NCBI GenBank assembly: GCA_030668875.1
Contig: DAOVER010000005.1
Coordinates: 1 to 32,000, forward strand
DNA: 32,000 nt
Direction: 5' to 3'
From: Candidatus Heimdallarchaeota archaeon
GTDB lineage: Archaea > Asgardarchaeota > Heimdallarchaeia > Heimdallarchaeales > Heimdallarchaeaceae
Under the pieces are notes generated by a model. That model was not told the origin of the DNA. It saw only the letters and a program-made list of their open reading frames with translations, and made no database searches. Positions 10,692 through 18,801 of the stretch are shown here, in pieces. Positions within the stretch are counted from its first letter, which is position 1. Every line of letters begins with the position of its first letter. A program made the translations under genes and the position numbers.

Positions 10692-11261
10692 ATGGCAGCT
10701 GGCCAAAGGAAAATATTCAAAATAACTTTGTTGGGAGACGGTGCAGTCGGAAAAACATCCTTGCGTAAGACCTATCTAGGAGAAGGATTCAAAGACGGCT
10801 ACAGTATGACAATCGGAGCCGATTTTGCCGTAAAACGACTTCGTATTGATGATCAAGATTTCGTTGCTCAGATCTGGGATTTAGCAGGACAACAAAGGTT
10901 CTCAGCTGTTCGTGAGGTTTACTATCGAGGAACTTCTGGATGTCTTCTTGTTTTTGACATTTCTCGTCGTTCTAGTTTCGAAAATATTCCCTCTTGGATC
11001 GCAGAACTTCTTAAGAACAACAGTAATAGGGTTGTTCCCATTGTTTTAATCGGTAATAAAAGCGATCTTCGTGCTACAGCCAAAGATCCTATTATGCGAG
11101 AACAATCTGAAGAATATGCTCGTTCTCTATCTCAATGGTCTGGTTTTTCTGTTCCTTACATTGAAACTTCTGCAAAGACAGGAGAAAATGTTGATGAAGC
11201 ATTCAAGACATTACTAAAAAATATTGTTCTCTTCTATGAAAAACTCTATGCACAGCAATAG
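10692..11261 (+). CDS. Rab-like small GTPase (eukaryotic signature protein)
   Basis: G1 GDGAVGKTS, G2 TIGADF, G3 WDLAGQ, G4 GNKSD, G5 TSAKTG, and RabF-like YYRGT and LVFDIS. No C-terminal prenylation cysteines. ATG 10692 preferred over TTG 10671. Confidence 0.93.
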   Translation: MAAGQRKIFKITLLGDGAVGKTSLRKTYLGEGFKDGYSMTIGADFAVKRLRIDDQDFVAQIWDLAGQQRFSAVREVYYRGTSGCLLVFDISRRSSFENIPSWIAELLKNNSNRVVPIVLIGNKSDLRATAKDPIMREQSEEYARSLSQWSGFSVPYIETSAKTGENVDEAFKTLLKNIVLFYEKLYAQQ

Positions 11262-11283
11262 TGTTTTTTATTTTTCACTTATT
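11262..11283. terminator. T-rich tract between convergent genes
   Basis: TGTTTTTTATTTTTCACTT follows the GTPase stop and fits an archaeal oligo-U terminator. Confidence 0.35.
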
Positions 11284-12093
11284 TTATTTATCTTCACTTG
11301 CCTTTACTTTGATATTCATTGTTTCTTCATTAAAACTTGCGTCAAGAGAAACTGTGCTGTCCTCATTTATTTGTAGTATTTTCATTTTTTCTAGTTCATC
11401 GATATAACGTTTAGTCTGTGATAGTGAAACACCTAGAACGAATGATAATTGTATTGGTGCAATTACTCCCATTCTTCTTAACAAGTTTATTATGTTAAAT
11501 CGAGGGTCAGAAGTAACCAGTCTTTCCAGTACTTCTTTTTGCGCACTCCATTTCCCCTTATCAGCTAAAACTTGATCTAATTTCTCTTGTAATTCTTTTT
11601 TCTCTGTCTCAATTGCTACTACTTGGTCTGATAACTCATAGATTAAAGTTTCTCTTTCTTCTAAGAGTAATTTTAGCATTTCCTTCTCTTTTTCTATTGT
11701 TTCCTGGATATTTGCTATATTTTCTTCTGTCAACTCTCTTTCTAGAAGAGATTCTTCAGCACCTAAATTATTTCTACTTCTTGGATATAGTGACACTGTT
11801 TGAAAACTAGATAAAAAGTTGAATAATCTAAAGAATTCTGTTTTTAATTCTGATATTATGTTGTCTGAGGAAGATTTTAACATTTCGTTGATATAAGCAA
11901 TTGCAGGGTTGATATCTAGTGTGCTTTTATTGGTATTCATCGACCCACTCTTTATATCACCCATTCGAGCCGAGTTTACCTTGCTCTTAATTGCTTTTAC
12001 TTCTTTTGTAAGCTTAACAATTTCATCGGTGATATCCATTAAATCGTGGGTTTCAGCGTCTTCAGAGTTTCCTTCTTTTCCCATAAATATCAA
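11284..12093 (-). CDS. Coiled-coil protein with C-terminal winged-helix domain
   Basis: Heptad E/K/L-rich segments, then RFNIINLLRRMG...PIQLSFVLGVSLSQTKRYIDELEKMKILQI (wHTH). Likely start is ATG 12084. Confidence 0.75.
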   Translation of the reverse strand: MIFMGKEGNSEDAETHDLMDITDEIVKLTKEVKAIKSKVNSARMGDIKSGSMNTNKSTLDINPAIAYINEMLKSSSDNIISELKTEFFRLFNFLSSFQTVSLYPRSRNNLGAEESLLERELTEENIANIQETIEKEKEMLKLLLEERETLIYELSDQVVAIETEKKELQEKLDQVLADKGKWSAQKEVLERLVTSDPRFNIINLLRRMGVIAPIQLSFVLGVSLSQTKRYIDELEKMKILQINEDSTVSLDASFNEETMNIKVKASEDK

Positions 12094-12927
12094 CTAAATC
12101 TTTGCGGTTGATTCTATTTTGAAACCTTCTGCTTCTGATGGAGTGATATCTAGTGTTTCACTCACATATGCTACACCCATTAGTTTCGTTATTGCGAAAG
12201 TGTCCTTGATTCTACTTCCAATTGAATCTCTTGTGAAATAGAATATACCTTGAGCTGCATTCATTATAATTCTTTCAGCTACAGGGTCAAGTACGCCTTG
12301 TGGTATTAAGAAAAAGTGTACTCCACCTAATTTTGCTAAAGACATCAAAGTGTTTTTTAGAAATGTAATCAGAGCTGCTGAATCTTCATCAAGTCTATCT
12401 TCTTTCATCCATAACAAATCATCGAAAACGCTAAAACATTGTTTATTCTGATTTTCTTTAACGTGAATCATCCTATCAATTATTTTTTTAGCGTAAGTTC
12501 TTCTTCTAACTTCTATTTTACCTAACTTCAGAGCTGATGACATTGTTGAACTAGTTAAATCGAACATATTTTCAAAATACCAGTTTTTACCTTCGTATGG
12601 AGAAATATCCCATTCATAAGCCTGGAAGGATTTTAATATACTGTCATATGGTGTGCTACTATGAACATAAAATATCATGTTGTCTTCTGTTTTTTGCGCC
12701 CAATTGAGTAATATACGTTGAACAAATAATTTGGGGATAACAGTATCTGAAGGGTAGCTCACTAGGATCAGAGAACCAGTTGGTATACCTCTTCGAGAGG
12801 ACATTTCCATACCAAGTTTCTGGTCTAAAGTTCTAATGCCAGTAAGTATTAATTCACCTCTGGCATCAATGTTACTACGTTTCTTCCCTATTCTTTCAAC
12901 TCCACCTTTTGGGGACTCTATATCCAT
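12094..12927 (-). CDS. KaiC/RAD55-like RecA-fold protein with degenerate Walker A (probably inactive)
   Basis: TGIRTLDQKLG...GIPTGSLILV start typical of KaiC/RAD55. The P-loop position reads SYPSDTVIPK, the Walker B-like motif is SVFDD, and ITKLMG replaces K-x-R-G. SD GAGGT upstream. Confidence 0.8.
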   Translation of the reverse strand: MDIESPKGGVERIGKKRSNIDARGELILTGIRTLDQKLGMEMSSRRGIPTGSLILVSYPSDTVIPKLFVQRILLNWAQKTEDNMIFYVHSSTPYDSILKSFQAYEWDISPYEGKNWYFENMFDLTSSTMSSALKLGKIEVRRRTYAKKIIDRMIHVKENQNKQCFSVFDDLLWMKEDRLDEDSAALITFLKNTLMSLAKLGGVHFFLIPQGVLDPVAERIIMNAAQGIFYFTRDSIGSRIKDTFAITKLMGVAYVSETLDITPSEAEGFKIESTAKI

Positions 12928-12955
12928 AGAACTTACCTCATAACAATTTTTTTGA

Positions 12956-13486
12956 TTAGAACTGCTCGAGTTCTCTCAAAGCTAGCTCCAAATCAGATAT
13001 GAATTCATCCTGAACTTTCTTTTCTTCAGTTGCTATTGGTTCAGGTGCAGGAGTTGGAGTGGGTGTTGGAGTAGGTGTTGGAGTTTCAGCAGTTTTTGCA
13101 GGTTTAGCTTCAACATCTAATATATTTCGTATTTTTTCTGCAGCCATTTTCATGGTTCTTCGTACCATACCTAGTTGTACACCAGTATCTGTGATAAGAC
13201 ACAGCACTGTACTTCCACAACTGGCAACTAAGATTAAGCCATCAGAAAATTCTGAGATTATAATGTCTAGTGCTGCTAATCCCACATTTTGACCCTGTTG
13301 TTCACTTGCCAAATACACTGCACTAGCTATCGCTCCAAGCGCTTCTGTTTCGAATTCATCGAAAGCAAATCTTGAAGAATATGCAAGTGTTAGTCCAGTT
13401 TTATCGGCTAATATAACATGGTTAATGTTAGCATCACTAGTTATTATTTCATGTAGGATTGCATTTATTTGATCGGCGCCATACAA
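12956..13486 (-). CDS. Roadblock/LC7 (MglB-like) domain protein with Pro/Thr linker and C-terminal helix
   Basis: VILADKTGLTLA...ALGAIASAVYLASEQ...IIISEFSDGLILV...VLCLIT...LGMVR fits the Roadblock fold. TTG start is preceded by a GGTGA SD. Confidence 0.88.
   Translation of the reverse strand: MYGADQINAILHEIITSDANINHVILADKTGLTLAYSSRFAFDEFETEALGAIASAVYLASEQQGQNVGLAALDIIISEFSDGLILVASCGSTVLCLITDTGVQLGMVRRTMKMAAEKIRNILDVEAKPAKTAETPTPTPTPTPTPAPEPIATEEKKVQDEFISDLELALRELEQF
13038..13088 (-). repeat. Low-complexity (TP)n/PAPEP linker repeat
   Basis: Imperfect 12-nt units (GTTGGAGTGGGT / GTTGGAGTAGGT on +) encode ETPTPTPTPTPAPEP. Confidence 0.85.
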
Positions 13487-13619: not shown

Positions 13620-14303
13620 ATGGTTGCATTAAAATACCCTGTTATAATCTTAAATTTCAAAAATTACATCCAATCTGTTGGAGATAATGGAGTAAAATTG
13701 GCTAAAATTGCAGAAGAAGTTGCAAAAGAGGTAGGTGTCGAGATTGTTGTTTGCCCTCAAACTGTAGATATTCGTCTCATTCATCAATCAGTAAGTATCC
13801 CCATATTTGCTCAACACATAGACCCTAATGATTCAGGTAGTCACACTGGAAATAATTTAATGGAAGCAATAATACAGAGTGGAGCATCTGGAACACTGAT
13901 AAATCACTCTGAACACCAATTGAGATTGTCTGATATAGAAAAAATCATTGCCAAAGCAAAGAAATCAGATTTCTTCACATGTATATGTGCAAACAATCTT
14001 CAAGTAAGCAGAGCAATCTCAGCTTTAAATCCTCTAGCATGTGCAATGGAACCACCAGAACTTATAGGTAGCGGAATCTCTGTTACAACAAAACCAGATT
14101 TAGTTAAACAAACAATTCAAGCAATAAAAGAAACCAATGTTTCAGTCACACCCTTAGTTGGAGCTGGGGTATCTACAGCTAAAGATGTTTCAGAAGCATT
14201 ACAACTGGGTGCAAAAGGAGTACTCCTAGCTTCTGGATTTGTTAAGGCAAAAGAACCTAAATCGGTGCTACTAGAAATGGCAAATGCCATGATAGAAAAA
14301 TAG
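13620..14303 (+). CDS. tpiA: Triosephosphate isomerase, archaeal type
   Basis: NFK, AQH, NHSE, MEPPELIGSG, GAGV and GVLLASG motifs; 227 aa. Confidence 0.97.
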   Translation: MVALKYPVIILNFKNYIQSVGDNGVKLAKIAEEVAKEVGVEIVVCPQTVDIRLIHQSVSIPIFAQHIDPNDSGSHTGNNLMEAIIQSGASGTLINHSEHQLRLSDIEKIIAKAKKSDFFTCICANNLQVSRAISALNPLACAMEPPELIGSGISVTTKPDLVKQTIQAIKETNVSVTPLVGAGVSTAKDVSEALQLGAKGVLLASGFVKAKEPKSVLLEMANAMIEK

Positions 14304-14333: not shown

Positions 14334-14801
14334 TTATTCATTGCGTTTCCACATCATTTTCTCGCCTTGCTTTATCTGTGTTAAAATTCCAGCTTCATCC
14401 ATTTGTTTTAAGGATCTAGCAAATTCCTCTTTAGTAATCGGGGGATTCCCTTGTTTTAACGCTGCAAATTGGCAGGATGCAAATATTGCATCTTCAAACA
14501 TAAATTTAGAAGAGCTGAATGATTCAATAATCAAATCTTTATTAGGAATCTTAAAATCCTTAACAACTGTTTTAACTTTTTGAATCTCTCCCTTAGTAGA
14601 TCCAATTTTTGAAATAATTAAATCCGAAATAATGTCATTTAATCCTTTACCCTTTGTTTGTTCCCCAAAACCATGAAGTTCAGCTAACAAGAAAGTTGCT
14701 TGTTGAATGAATGATTCTATAGATTCAAAGTTATTTTCATCGACTAGTTTCTGTAAATAGTTGTACAAGCCTTCAGGGATTGTAATTTCAATAGGTTTCA
14801 T
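14334..14801 (-). CDS. Ribbon-helix-helix (CopG-like) plus C-terminal winged-helix-like protein
   Basis: IEITIPEGLYNYLQKLV...FESIESFIQQA fits RHH. C-terminal TKEEFARSLKQMDEAGIL..IKQG..MW fits wHTH. SD AGGAG. Confidence 0.65.
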   Translation of the reverse strand: MKPIEITIPEGLYNYLQKLVDENNFESIESFIQQATFLLAELHGFGEQTKGKGLNDIISDLIISKIGSTKGEIQKVKTVVKDFKIPNKDLIIESFSSSKFMFEDAIFASCQFAALKQGNPPITKEEFARSLKQMDEAGILTQIKQGEKMMWKRNE

Positions 14802-15257: not shown

Positions 15258-15554
15258 TCACTTTGCTTTTTCTTGGATAATTCCAGATCTTTTTAAGAGA
15301 AACTCTTTTTCAACAGCGATAGCTCTTTCAGCTGTTTCATAAACATGAACAAGAGCTAAACTTTTTCCTTCTCCATATTTAGCTTCTAGTTTAATTAAAA
15401 CTACTTGATTTCTTTCTTTGTTTAATAGAGCAGCTAATTTTGACAAGAAATCATCACGTTTAGGAACTGGTTGTCCAATATGATCAACTTTAGCTTGTAT
15501 TTCTGTTCGCTCTAGTAATTTATTTTCATTTTTCTCAATGATATCAATCTTCAT
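15258..15554 (-). CDS. rps24e: 30S ribosomal protein S24e
   Basis: NKLLERTEI...P.R...LAALL...YGEGKS...VYE...E..L.R pattern and conserved gene context. Confidence 0.95.
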   Translation of the reverse strand: MKIDIIEKNENKLLERTEIQAKVDHIGQPVPKRDDFLSKLAALLNKERNQVVLIKLEAKYGEGKSLALVHVYETAERAIAVEKEFLLKRSGIIQEKAK

Positions 15555-16095
15555 TAATCTTCACCATTTTACGTAATAATCCGCAAACGTTTTGTTTTAC
15601 TTCTTCAGTGACTGACACTACTACTAATCCTTCATTAGGTTGCCCATATAAGACTTTTGAATCCAGTGGAGCTTCAAGTATAATTGGAAGTACCAGTAAA
15701 TCCTCTTCACCTATTATTTTTATAATTATTTTGTTACCTTCACTTTTTAGACTATTAATAATCTCAACCCACGCGTTTTGCATTATGTAACCTGCTTGGT
15801 TGGATGTTTCTACAACAGAAACATTCTCAATTTCTAATATTGGAACTTTTTCCCTTTGCACATGTTCATCAATAATAGCGATGTCTGGTATAAATGACAG
15901 TTCCACAAATACTTTTGTGGTTACGTCACCCACCGTTATAACCTTGGGTATTGTATCGTCCTGAGATAGCTTATTAATTAGTTTAACAATGTCGTGTCGA
16001 TTCTTTATGATTTGCCCTAAAGGGTTCTTAAAATAGCACCTTTGATTTTGGGGTAAAAAATAGGAACCAGGTTTTATTTGATTCAACAAGTTCAC
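15544..16095 (-). CDS. GTP-dependent dephospho-CoA kinase (DUF359 family)
   Basis: ITVGDVTT, IIDEHVQRE, NQAGYI, GEEDLL.LP and YGQPNEGLV motifs; canonical position between spt4 and rps24e. Confidence 0.9.
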   Translation of the reverse strand: MNLLNQIKPGSYFLPQNQRCYFKNPLGQIIKNRHDIVKLINKLSQDDTIPKVITVGDVTTKVFVELSFIPDIAIIDEHVQREKVPILEIENVSVVETSNQAGYIMQNAWVEIINSLKSEGNKIIIKIIGEEDLLVLPIILEAPLDSKVLYGQPNEGLVVVSVTEEVKQNVCGLLRKMVKINED

Positions 16096-16280
16096 CGGAC
16101 TCGAAGAGCATAATGTCCTTTTTTATCTATTTTCATTCTCTTCGCAACGTCGCTTTCTTCTGGTTTTAGGATGAATATTTCACCCACAAATTCAGAAGAA
16201 ATGTCTTGTGTTTTACAATTTGGACAAATACTAGCAGTCTTATCCATGATTATGTGGCACACCCTACAAGCTTTGGACAT
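16092..16280 (-). CDS. spt4: Transcription elongation factor Spt4 (RpoE'')
   Basis: KACRVCH...CPNC zinc ribbon, SEVAKRM and GHYALRVR motifs. Confidence 0.95.
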   Translation of the reverse strand: MSKACRVCHIIMDKTASICPNCKTQDISSEFVGEIFILKPEESDVAKRMKIDKKGHYALRVR

Positions 16281-16281
16281 A

Positions 16282-16857
16282 TCATGAAGCCTCCTCTGCT
16301 TTACTCTTTGGTTTTTTTAGTTCAACTTTCCACTCTTCAATCCATTCATTTGTTCCTAAAGCATCTTGACGCATAGTTAAACCAACCCTTATGGATGACT
16401 TTCCTATGCTTACAGCAATGATTCTTGCGCGTACCCTTGTGTTTACCAGTAAATCTCTTTTAGATTTATCTCCACGAAGAACAGCGTTTTTTGGGATATA
16501 ACGGAAATAATCATCTGCGATTTGAGAAACATGGCATAAAGCATCAATGGTTCCTATCCTGATAAATGCGCCAAAATCTACACATTCTACTACTTCTCCA
16601 GAAACAATCTCATTTATTTCAGGCAAATAGCATAACAATTCGAAATCAGATTCATAGTATGAACCTCCGTCTCCTGAAATCAATTTTCCTTGGTAAATTT
16701 CGTTTATTTCTGTAACTGCTACAATGAAACCTAAATCTGCATCAATTTTACCTTCTAACCCTTCTCTCGCTATTTCTACTAATACTTTAGCAAGGTCTTC
16801 ATCGAATCTGTTAGGGGGAACCCTTAATGTATCCTTTACTTTTACCTTATAATACAA
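16282..16857 (-). CDS. rpoE1: DNA-directed RNA polymerase subunit E' (Rpo7)
   Basis: RVPPNRF, GDGGSY, FGAFIRIGTIDALCHVSQI (S1 domain) and GLTMRQDALG motifs. Confidence 0.97.
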   Translation of the reverse strand: MYYKVKVKDTLRVPPNRFDEDLAKVLVEIAREGLEGKIDADLGFIVAVTEINEIYQGKLISGDGGSYYESDFELLCYLPEINEIVSGEVVECVDFGAFIRIGTIDALCHVSQIADDYFRYIPKNAVLRGDKSKRDLLVNTRVRARIIAVSIGKSSIRVGLTMRQDALGTNEWIEEWKVELKKPKSKAEEAS

Positions 16858-17121
16858 GATAAACCCATCTCGCTTAATTATTCAATCCTCGTTCTTTTCT
16901 AATGTTTTTAAACATGCTCATAGTAAATATTTTCTATAAATCTAACGCTAAGAAAGTAACCTTTGTGAGAAAAAGATAGATTACTTATCTGTAAAAAATA
17001 TTATGTTAAACGGAAGGTTTTTGATAGATTACTTTAGATTGAAAACAAACTTAAATAGGTTCATCTAAAGTTTATCAATAAAATTTGGTGGATATTGATT
17101 AGAAATACTGAGGAAAATTTA

Positions 17122-18390
17122 ATGAGTGAACAAGTTCCCCCTAAAAAAGAAGAGAAAAAAATCCAACAACCAGTTGTTAATATTGGAACCATTGGACATG
17201 TTGATAATGGAAAGTCTACATTAGTACAAGCTTTAACTGGTAAATTTCCAGACGATCATTCAGAAGAATTGAAAAGAGGTATATCAATCAGATTGGGGTA
17301 TGCAGACACAGAATTTCGTAAGTGTCCAAATTGCTCAGAACCTGAAGCATATACTGTGGAAAAAGAATGCCCCAAATGTGGAAAACCCTCTGAACTAATC
17401 AGACGTGTATCATTTGTTGATTGCCCAGGTCACGAAGTTTTGATGGCAACCCTTCTTTCTGGAGCTACATTGATGAATGGTGCGATCCTACTAATTGCTG
17501 CAAATTCAAGATGCCCTCAACCTCAAACAAGAGAACATCTTGCTGCTATGGAAATTCTTCAAATAAAGAATATCGTCGTTGCTCAAAACAAAATAGAACT
17601 AGTTACAGAAGAAGAAGCTAAAAGAAATTACCAAGAGATTAAGGATTTTATTAAGGGAACAATTGCTGAAGATGCACCAATAGTCCCAATAAGCGCAATG
17701 CATGGAGCTAACCTTGACGTATTAATTAATGAGATTGAGAAAAATATTCCAACACCAGAAATTGATCTAGATAGCCCATTTGAAATGCATGTAGCACGAT
17801 CTTTTGATATCAACAGACCCGGTACTAAACCAAAAAACCTCAAAGGAGGAGCATTAGGTGGATCAGTTATTCAAGGACAAATCAAGGTAGGGGAAGATAT
17901 TGAGATTGTTCCAGGGATTTCAATCAAAAAAGGAAACAAAGCAGCCTATCAAAAAATTATAACAAAAGTAGTAAGTATTGCAATAGGAGAGCAAGGTTTA
18001 GTAGATAGTGCCCATTCTGGTGGTTTAGTTGCTCTAGGTACAGAATTAGATCCATCATTTATAAAATCAGACAAAATGGGAGGAAATATTATAACAAAAC
18101 CAGGTGAAGGACCTCCAATACGTTCAACATTAAGTCTCAAAATTCGATTGCTCGAATATGTTGTTGGGTCAGAAGAAATAACTAAAGTACAACCTCTTGC
18201 ACAGGGGGAGACTCTAATGCTCAATGTTGGAACTGCAAAGACTTCAGGATCAATTACAGAAATCAAAGGAAAGGAAGCACAAATTAAATTGAGTAGAGAA
18301 GTAGCAACACGAACAAAAAGCCTTGTTGCAATATCTAGGCGCATTTCTGGAAGATTTCGGTTAATAGGCGTAGGAGAAATTTTCAATTAA
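17122..18390 (+). CDS. eif2g: Translation initiation factor aIF2 gamma subunit
   Basis: GHVDNGKS, HSEELKRGISIRLGYA, zinc knuckle, DCPGHE, PQPQTREH, QNKIE, RSFDINRPG and RFRLIG motifs. ATG 17122 has a GAGG SD. Confidence 0.97.
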   Translation: MSEQVPPKKEEKKIQQPVVNIGTIGHVDNGKSTLVQALTGKFPDDHSEELKRGISIRLGYADTEFRKCPNCSEPEAYTVEKECPKCGKPSELIRRVSFVDCPGHEVLMATLLSGATLMNGAILLIAANSRCPQPQTREHLAAMEILQIKNIVVAQNKIELVTEEEAKRNYQEIKDFIKGTIAEDAPIVPISAMHGANLDVLINEIEKNIPTPEIDLDSPFEMHVARSFDINRPGTKPKNLKGGALGGSVIQGQIKVGEDIEIVPGISIKKGNKAAYQKIITKVVSIAIGEQGLVDSAHSGGLVALGTELDPSFIKSDKMGGNIITKPGEGPPIRSTLSLKIRLLEYVVGSEEITKVQPLAQGETLMLNVGTAKTSGSITEIKGKEAQIKLSREVATRTKSLVAISRRISGRFRLIGVGEIFN

Positions 18391-18405
18391 TTTGGAGATT
18401 TTATC

Positions 18406-18801
18406 ATGTTAGTTCTACTTGATTCTAGCATGTTAATGTTGCCTTTAGAAAAAAAAATTAATCTTAGTTATGAATTCGAAAGAATTCTAACCGTTGCTTT
18501 TGAAATTGTTGTTCCACAGATTGTTTTGATTGAATTGGAAGAACTAAAAGAAAAAGGTGAAATAGCTAAAAAACGCAAAGCACAACTTGCTTTGAATTTA
18601 GCTGGGTCTTTTAAGATGATAGAATCCAAAACAGAAGTGCACGTGGATTATGAATTAATACGACTTGCAGAGATTCACAAAGCTGTTATCGCTACAAATG
18701 ATAGAAAACTTCGATCTATACTCATAAACAAAGGAATGGCGGTAATTTCTTTACATGGTAAAAATAAGCTTGCTCTTTTTGGTGATTTATCTTATCAATA
18801 A
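18406..18801 (+). CDS. PIN-domain nuclease (Fcf1/Utp24-like archaeal family)
   Basis: LLDSS, VLIELEEL, VD.ELI and IATNDRKLR acidic tetrad; canonical neighbour of aIF2-gamma. Confidence 0.9.
   Translation: MLVLLDSSMLMLPLEKKINLSYEFERILTVAFEIVVPQIVLIELEELKEKGEIAKKRKAQLALNLAGSFKMIESKTEVHVDYELIRLAEIHKAVIATNDRKLRSILINKGMAVISLHGKNKLALFGDLSYQ

Follow-up and report, generated by a model that had tools for sequence, protein, structure and literature searches.

The window analysed here is a 32,000-nucleotide (nt) stretch of a Candidatus Heimdallarchaeota archaeon genome (GenBank assembly GCA_030668875.1, contig DAOVER010000005.1, positions 1 to 32,000 of the forward strand). It carries a minus-strand run of three genes, encoding a Roadblock protein, a KaiC-like protein and a coiled-coil protein with a C-terminal winged helix-turn-helix domain (CC-wHTH), which converges on the gene for a Rab-like small GTPase (Table 1). 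Gene order across the Asgard phylum points to MglA, encoded on another contig of the same genome, and not to the adjacent Rab, as the GTPase of this Roadblock protein. An Asgard genome set (n=300) was scanned by profile. Families are written f (f1, Heimdallarchaeaceae, is that of the window genome, and f1-f4 make up the order Heimdallarchaeales), and g, G, C and L denote genus, genome, contig and locus. The window genome, an Asgard bin, is G000, and its contigs are cited as C69, C44, C32, C27 and C71.

The Roadblock and KaiC-like genes are separated by 28 nt, and CC-wHTH lies 22 nt from Rab, stop to stop. Between the KaiC-like and CC-wHTH genes the gap is 0 nt with the TTG start at 12093 and 9 nt with the in-frame ATG at 12084. 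These coordinates confirm the arrangement described in an earlier interpretation of the letters alone (the sequence-only reading), namely three minus-strand genes with gaps of 28 and 0 nt ending 22 nt from the Rab stop. None of the four genes is disrupted, and all have conserved counterparts in relatives; they are therefore not chance open reading frames (ORFs). A promoter and terminator scan with a sigma-70 model, which is unsuited to archaea, returned chance-level results, and a search for RNA runs covering the stretch found none listed.

The Roadblock protein comprises a Roadblock domain (residues 1-122), a Pro/Thr-rich linker and an acidic amphipathic C-terminal helix (approximately residues 157-176). 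Pfam Robl_LC7 matches it at E 5e-7, and its top four PDB matches, all at E ~1e-6, are three MglB entries and one Roadblock/LC7 protein; the NCBIfam MglB model matches below its cut-off. In the profile search, the family was present in one or two copies in 269/300 Asgard genomes. A D/E-rich amphipathic C-terminal motif, whose helical nature is deduced from the sequence pattern, is conserved across the Asgard copies, and the last 20 residues of the window protein carry a net charge of -4. The sequence-only reading had placed the protein among the regulators of small GTPases; family membership and the best PDB matches now specify it as MglB-type by descent.

Gene order analysis identified a recurring cluster (20 loci, phylum-wide) composed of a divergent RbA, a short RbB, Roadblock, a GTPase and RbC, where RbA, RbB and RbC denote the additional roadblock genes of the Asgard mglA cluster. 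The GTPase is MglA, matching the Thermus and Myxococcus proteins at E 3.5e-36 and 1e-34, with the next family at 8e-10. Outside f1, 53 of the 56 genomes with both positions listed have Roadblock upstream of a co-directional MglA at a distance of no more than 1 kb, in ten families; this tally derives from listed top matches, includes related genomes and describes a pattern, not a statistical test. The mglB-mglA order is ancestral in Asgard genomes. By contrast, the arrangement occurs in none of 17 f1 genomes (0/17), no coupling of Roadblock to mglA within four genes was detected among the f2-f4 genomes checked, and the two genes are 565 and 682 kb apart in the two closed Ca. Heimdallarchaeum genomes. 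Under the published definition, in which a coupled MglB has mglA within four genes, the window Roadblock is an orphan MglB. In bacteria and archaea, 390/449 MglA-family genes are coupled to MglB, with 0/121 for the Rup family (PMC4316618). The ancestral cluster often sits beside genes that, judged by eye from their starts, resemble SMC, ScpA and ScpB (L139, L144, L149, L152, L153).

MglA itself is retained in 38 of the 42 genomes of the order. In the window genome the MglA orthologue (C69:2791-3357, E 1.8e-86) follows RbB after 59 nt; the protein keeps the switch-I Arg and the switch-II Gln, and its best PDB match is MglA (E 9e-30). The adjacent RbB (L154:2791-3719 covers the RbB and MglA region of G000 C69) has 100 amino acids (aa), matches Robl_LC7 at E 1e-20 and LAMTOR5 weakly, and is devoid of the MglB C-terminal extension. 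The surviving cluster consists of RbB, MglA and RbC in f4 and of RbB and MglA in f1 and f2, and some f3 loci have RbB and MglA in divergent orientation. RbC of the window genome is encoded on C44. This remnant is the ancestral cluster minus the window Roadblock gene.

A quick tree, with supports from the SH-like approximate likelihood ratio test (SH-aLRT), separates four roadblock families (supports 98, 99, 98 and 80), with the family of the window Roadblock on one side of a branch of support 98, and places the relocated Roadblocks in a clade of their own (support 97), sister to the MglA-coupled copies. Roadblocks of the order score 137-151 bits against MglA-coupled copies and 92-105 bits against a second paralogue found in f5 and f7. 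Because the order has a single copy, and because that copy scores higher to the coupled proteins than to the paralogue, a relocated orthologue appears to be the simplest account of these sequences. In f5 and f7 (L186:663-2633, L188:669-2730, L184:3-1287) the second paralogue follows a coiled-coil protein with a SNARE-domain match below cut-off (E 1e-4), and in f5 it precedes TFE. This was considered as a similar operon and rejected, as the coiled-coil/SNARE-like and TFE neighbours are dissimilar to CC-wHTH.

The AlphaFold2 model of the KaiC-like protein (predicted local distance difference test score, pLDDT, 84) has a KaiC fold, with Z scores of 23-25 to SSO2452, KaiC CI, PH0284 and FlaH. The best values are 25.1 to SSO2452 (root-mean-square deviation 2.3, 216 residues aligned) and 24.5 to KaiC CI. 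Foldseek matches the model to FlaH at E 3.5e-13, and the Pfam KaiC ATPase match (E 4.7e-5) falls below cut-off. The catalytic motifs have been lost. The Walker A position reads SYPSDTVIPKL, and the Gly-Lys-Thr of GxxGxGK[TS] is found in 0/24 orthologue sequences; the catalytic Glu pair of KaiC's EESP is replaced by SSTP or SSRP; and the arginine finger motif K-x-R-G is K-L-M-G, with Met, Ser, Thr, Val, Leu or Ala replacing the Arg in orthologues. Walker B Asp169 and Lys248 are invariant. The conclusion that the protein is catalytically inactive, already drawn in the sequence-only reading, is well supported at the sequence level by the loss of Walker A, Glu pair and arginine finger alike. Relatives in other Asgard families already miss the Walker A lysine, and the copy of the order has diverged further, on a stem of 2.4 changes per site. 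Copies with an intact Walker A occur elsewhere in the window genome (C27, C71), and genus g3 encodes an intact KaiC-like ATPase 4-7 kb from the dead one (L031:12456-13211, L037:13153-13896); an intact ATPase of this kind is a possible hetero-oligomer partner of the dead protein.

For CC-wHTH, the AlphaFold2 model consists of helices at residues 11-45, 62-100 and 114-195 and a wHTH at 197-250. All fold matches are weak (E > 0.001) and generic. The wHTH faintly resembles MarR, ArsR and Sul12a domains, the HTH_24 (E 0.003) and Sul12a matches lie below cut-off, all Atlas matches are under 0.9, and a PDB search with the CC-wHTH profile returned generic coiled coils only. Winged helix-turn-helix folds also serve as protein-binding domains. 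DPR and QL-x-F motifs are conserved in the family. Clear orthologues occur in the order only, and f6 has weak homologues. One paralogue is encoded on C32 (L156:4055-4852; hhalign probability 96%).

The trio forms a real, moderately stable three-gene operon. Its genes point the same way in three of the order's four families (f1, f3 and f4), which bears out the sequence-only reading in treating the three genes as an operon. Order, strand and tight spacing are kept at 40-50% protein identity. Outside f1, 7 of the 12 loci of the order retain the same gene order and direction with differing flanking genes; the neighbouring TIM, ABCE1 and V-ATPase genes switch side or strand, or disappear, across f1, f3 and f4. 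The KaiC-like and CC-wHTH genes are distributed alike, with strong matches across the order and weak ones in f6. In f2 these two remain together, with Roadblock a few genes away on the opposite strand, and the KaiC-like gene is solitary in two loci, one of them a 3-kb contig. The 766-aa TrmB gene is no more than about five genes away from the trio in f1, f2 and two f3 genera, and in Ca. Heimdallarchaeum it comes immediately after Rab on the same strand; it may be a fourth member or background synteny.

Table 1. Genes of the studied locus and its surroundings (window positions)
Gene or block	Position	Strand	Remarks
Rab-like small GTPase, 189 aa	10692..11261	+	ATG start; Pfam Ras E 4e-49; convergent neighbour
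CC-wHTH, coiled-coil protein with C-terminal winged helix	11284..12093	-	269 aa from TTG, 266 from ATG 12084
KaiC-like, catalytically dead KaiC/RecA-fold protein, 277 aa	12094..12927	-	AlphaFold2 fold and motif loss
Roadblock, MglB-type, 176 aa	12956..13486	-	TTG start; Pfam Robl_LC7
Triosephosphate isomerase (TIM)	13620..14303	+	Pfam TIM; divergent neighbour, background-synteny control
TrmB-wHTH with long helical middle, 766 aa	7430..9730	-	Pfam TrmB E 4e-6, N-terminal
155-aa protein without Pfam family	14334-14801	-	Kept beside TIM (f1), beside Roadblock (f2)
Housekeeping block: S24e, DUF359, RpoE, eIF2-gamma, PIN	15258-18801		Syntenic with the locus family-wide

In the reading preferred here, the Roadblock protein is an MglB relocated from the ancient mglB-mglA cluster, which regulates the C69 MglA and is expressed alongside a pseudo-ATPase acting as scaffold and a wHTH protein; taken whole, this account stands at about an even chance. 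That the relocated protein still works as an MglB on the C69 MglA is rather probable, because Roadblock keeps the acidic C-terminal helix and alpha-2 and MglA keeps its Arg and Gln. Comparison of the relocated with the MglA-coupled copies shows alpha-2 to be kept better than any other segment (65%, with 44% for the domain overall). In Myxococcus, the alpha-2 helices of the MglB dimer bind the MglA beta-2 strand and orient Arg53 and Gln82, and the acidic C-terminal helix promotes nucleotide exchange (PMC6785124). Likewise, a Roadblock dimer would bind the C69 MglA through alpha-2 helices and position MglA's own Arg and Gln to hydrolyse GTP; its acidic C-terminal helix would act on MglA alpha-5, as in Myxococcus. 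As an oligomer without catalytic activity, the dead KaiC would act as a scaffold, binding, positioning or sequestering Roadblock, and a CC-wHTH dimer would anchor the Roadblock/KaiC-like complex to DNA or another protein; these scaffold and anchor roles are evenly poised between right and wrong. The separate operon would allow MglB to be expressed apart from MglA, together with the KaiC-like and CC-wHTH proteins.

Several observations weigh against this account. Alpha-2 also helps to build the dimer core, and therefore its conservation need not reflect MglA binding. The relocated clade sits on a longer stem (0.53), and a changed function or hidden paralogy of the relocated Roadblock is possible. 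Roadblock is non-adjacent to MglA in f6, f8, f15 and f25 as well, and the Roadblock family is kept in f14 and f27, where a search at E 1e-60 did not find this MglA. In genus g3 the trio genes are dispersed over ~15 kb, and no CC-wHTH was found in genome G231 (91% complete, 710 contigs). At the G231 locus (L100, C152), the convergent Rab directly follows the KaiC-like gene.

The sequence-only reading had proposed the Rab as the GTPase of the Roadblock protein. The protein is a Rab-like GTPase with G1-G5 motifs (GDGAVGKT, WDLAGQ, NKSD and ETSAK); its best PDB match is the Thorarchaeota Rab 7ezb (E 9.5e-40), with Ypt7, Rab7 and Rab11 among the top matches. It ends at residue 189 with no prenylation cysteines at the C terminus, and Thor-Rab likewise has none (PMC10933270). 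Of the 26 f1 loci, 22 have the Rab gene and the trio tail to tail, and in three more Rab is at most two genes away. Among the four other loci, two have Nth in between and Rab inverted, one has no CC-wHTH there and one is a contig end; the inverted layout is that of the two closed Ca. Heimdallarchaeum genomes. Within f1, TIM, Nth, the 155-aa gene and Rab show equally good linkage to the trio, the S24e-RpoE-eIF2gamma block also neighbours it in most f1 loci, and TIM adjoins it in f1, f2 and one f3 genus. Because these genes are kept in the same loci, the adjacency of Rab is ordinary family-level synteny. In f2, f3, f4 and f6 the orthologues of Rab (63-69% identity) are located on different contigs, amid other genes. 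The synteny check across Asgard genomes thus found Rab unlinked to the trio outside f1, and the ancestral neighbour of Roadblock is MglA; the proposed pairing is not supported, and Rab probably belongs outside the module. The wiring through a scaffold to a wHTH output, proposed in the same reading, is still conjectural. In f3 (L161, L162, L165, L166, L167) a ~500-aa protein with thioredoxin and V4R domains adjoins the Rab orthologue, and in f6 (L114-L122) it lies 2-4 genes from the KaiC-like homologue; it is a candidate redox-sensing partner of Rab.

A regulator that switched or widened its client after leaving MglA would offer another account, in which Roadblock, with the dead KaiC and the wHTH protein, regulates the convergent Rab. 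This is consistent with the frequent tail-to-tail layout in f1, with the extreme constraint on Rab (97-100% identity across the genus, against ~68% for TIM and ~90% for MglA), with a different small GTPase following CC-wHTH on the same strand in f2, and with the action of eukaryotic roadblock/longin dimers on Rabs (PMC10933270). Such constraint says that Rab is important and not what regulates it. The small GTPases near the KaiC-like gene in f2 and those of Hodarchaeales-like neighbourhoods were rejected as Rab orthologues (30-41% identity; rank 15/16 in G133), as was an f5 GTPase two genes from the KaiC-like gene. Small-GTPase profiles match 32 of the 3116 ORFs of the window genome (~1%), and therefore some GTPase neighbours are expected by chance. 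Basic residues on GTPase alpha-5 do not discriminate, being present in both MglA and Rab. With Rab on the opposite strand, and so sharing no transcript with the trio, unlinked in f2, f3, f4 and f6, separated by Nth and inverted in Ca. Heimdallarchaeum, and no more linked in f1 than TIM, Nth and the 155-aa gene, regulation of Rab is decidedly unlikely. A broader scenario, in which the Heimdallarchaeales MglB left the mglA operon, joined a pseudo-KaiC/CC-wHTH complex and gained a Rab-like client, new or second, is a long shot; if true, the transition from MglA-type to Rab-type roadblock/longin regulation seen in eukaryotes could be observed in a living archaeon.

Alternatively, Roadblock may have left GTPase control to become an adaptor in a transcription or chromatin module, with the dead KaiC as sensor or scaffold and CC-wHTH as DNA-binding output. 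The long stems of both Roadblock (0.53) and the KaiC-like protein (2.4) in the order would fit such a change, as would the weak resemblance of the wHTH to MarR, ArsR and Sul12a domains. RbB is still beside MglA and could serve it alone, and inactivated KaiC domains have been proposed as archaeal signalling parts (PMC5847659). Against this, the window protein has kept both MglA-contact elements of MglB (alpha-2 and the acidic C-terminal helix), whereas the 100-aa RbB has no such C-terminal extension. DNA binding by the wHTH is itself a prediction for a fold that can also bind protein, and the adaptor role is unlikely. The trio might also be co-transcribed neighbours without a common complex, preserved by slow rearrangement in the order. 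TIM, ABCE1, RFC and the TrmB-like gene likewise recur near it in more than one family, and the trio is broken up in genera g3 and g8 and partly in f2. However, its order, strand and spacing outlast divergence to 40-50% identity while the flanks change, and the KaiC-like and CC-wHTH genes keep their common distribution, which makes mere neighbourhood rather improbable.

The locus bears on an open problem, the pairing of Asgard GTPases with their regulators. A 2024 structural paper considered this pairing hard to deduce from genome layout (PMC10933270); here, phylum-wide gene order names a pair, Roadblock and the C69 MglA, for which the neighbouring Rab is a concrete negative control. The case also documents rewiring in a lineage close to eukaryotes, where the mglB-mglA operon has split and MglB now stands beside a pseudo-ATPase and a wHTH protein. 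Since the proteins involved are all small and soluble, standard assays would suffice; the interest is limited in that each fold is already known. No description of the trio operon or of the Roadblock relocation was found in the literature checked, which did not include Makarova et al. 2017 (mBio, KaiC hubs).

Among known systems, the Asgard Rab and Roadblock structures (Thor-Rab 7ezb, Thor-RB and MKD1-RB; PMC10933270) provide the best solved relative of the Rab-like protein, Thor-Rab; layout was called of little help there, whereas here it indicates MglA for Roadblock. The Elongator Elp4/5/6 ring is similar in being a pseudo-ATPase of RecA/KaiC fold without Walker A (Elp456 chains, Z 19.7 and 13.6), and PAXNEB is present in some Atlas look-alike clusters. 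However, Elp456 ranks only 9th, behind archaeal KaiC-like proteins (Z 21-25), and neither the fold matches nor the gene context gave any sign of orthology to Elp4/5/6 or of a tRNA-modification setting. The actinobacterial conservon (CvnA kinase, CvnB roadblock, CvnC and CvnD GTPase; PMC4316618) follows a comparable logic of a roadblock, accessory proteins and an MglA-family GTPase, but the co-directional run here contains no histidine kinase and no GTPase, and the MglA is group-1-like, not group 2.

The closest parallels are MglA-MglB and the inactivated KaiC proteins (iKaiC). The former (Myxococcus xanthus and Thermus thermophilus, group 1 MglA; PMC6785124, PMC4316618) shares with the present system the best PDB matches of Roadblock, the linker and acidic C-terminal helix, the intrinsic Arg and Gln of MglA and the Asgard mglB-mglA order. 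It differs in that mglB here stands apart from mglA, at the head of an operon shared with the dead KaiC and CC-wHTH genes, that Roadblock has low identity to MglB (E 1e-6, below the NCBIfam cut-off), and that the Asgard cluster has up to three more roadblocks; no role in polarity or motility is implied here. Archaeal iKaiC proteins (PMC5847659) likewise combine a KaiC fold with vanished ATPase motifs, within a wider archaeal group with degenerate Walker A. In contrast, the KaiC-like protein here is stand-alone, without fusion to a REC or sensor domain, is paired with an MglB orthologue and has degenerated further than the relatives in f5, f6 and f15. In its probable workings, the trio comes nearest to an orphan MglB partnered by an iKaiC.

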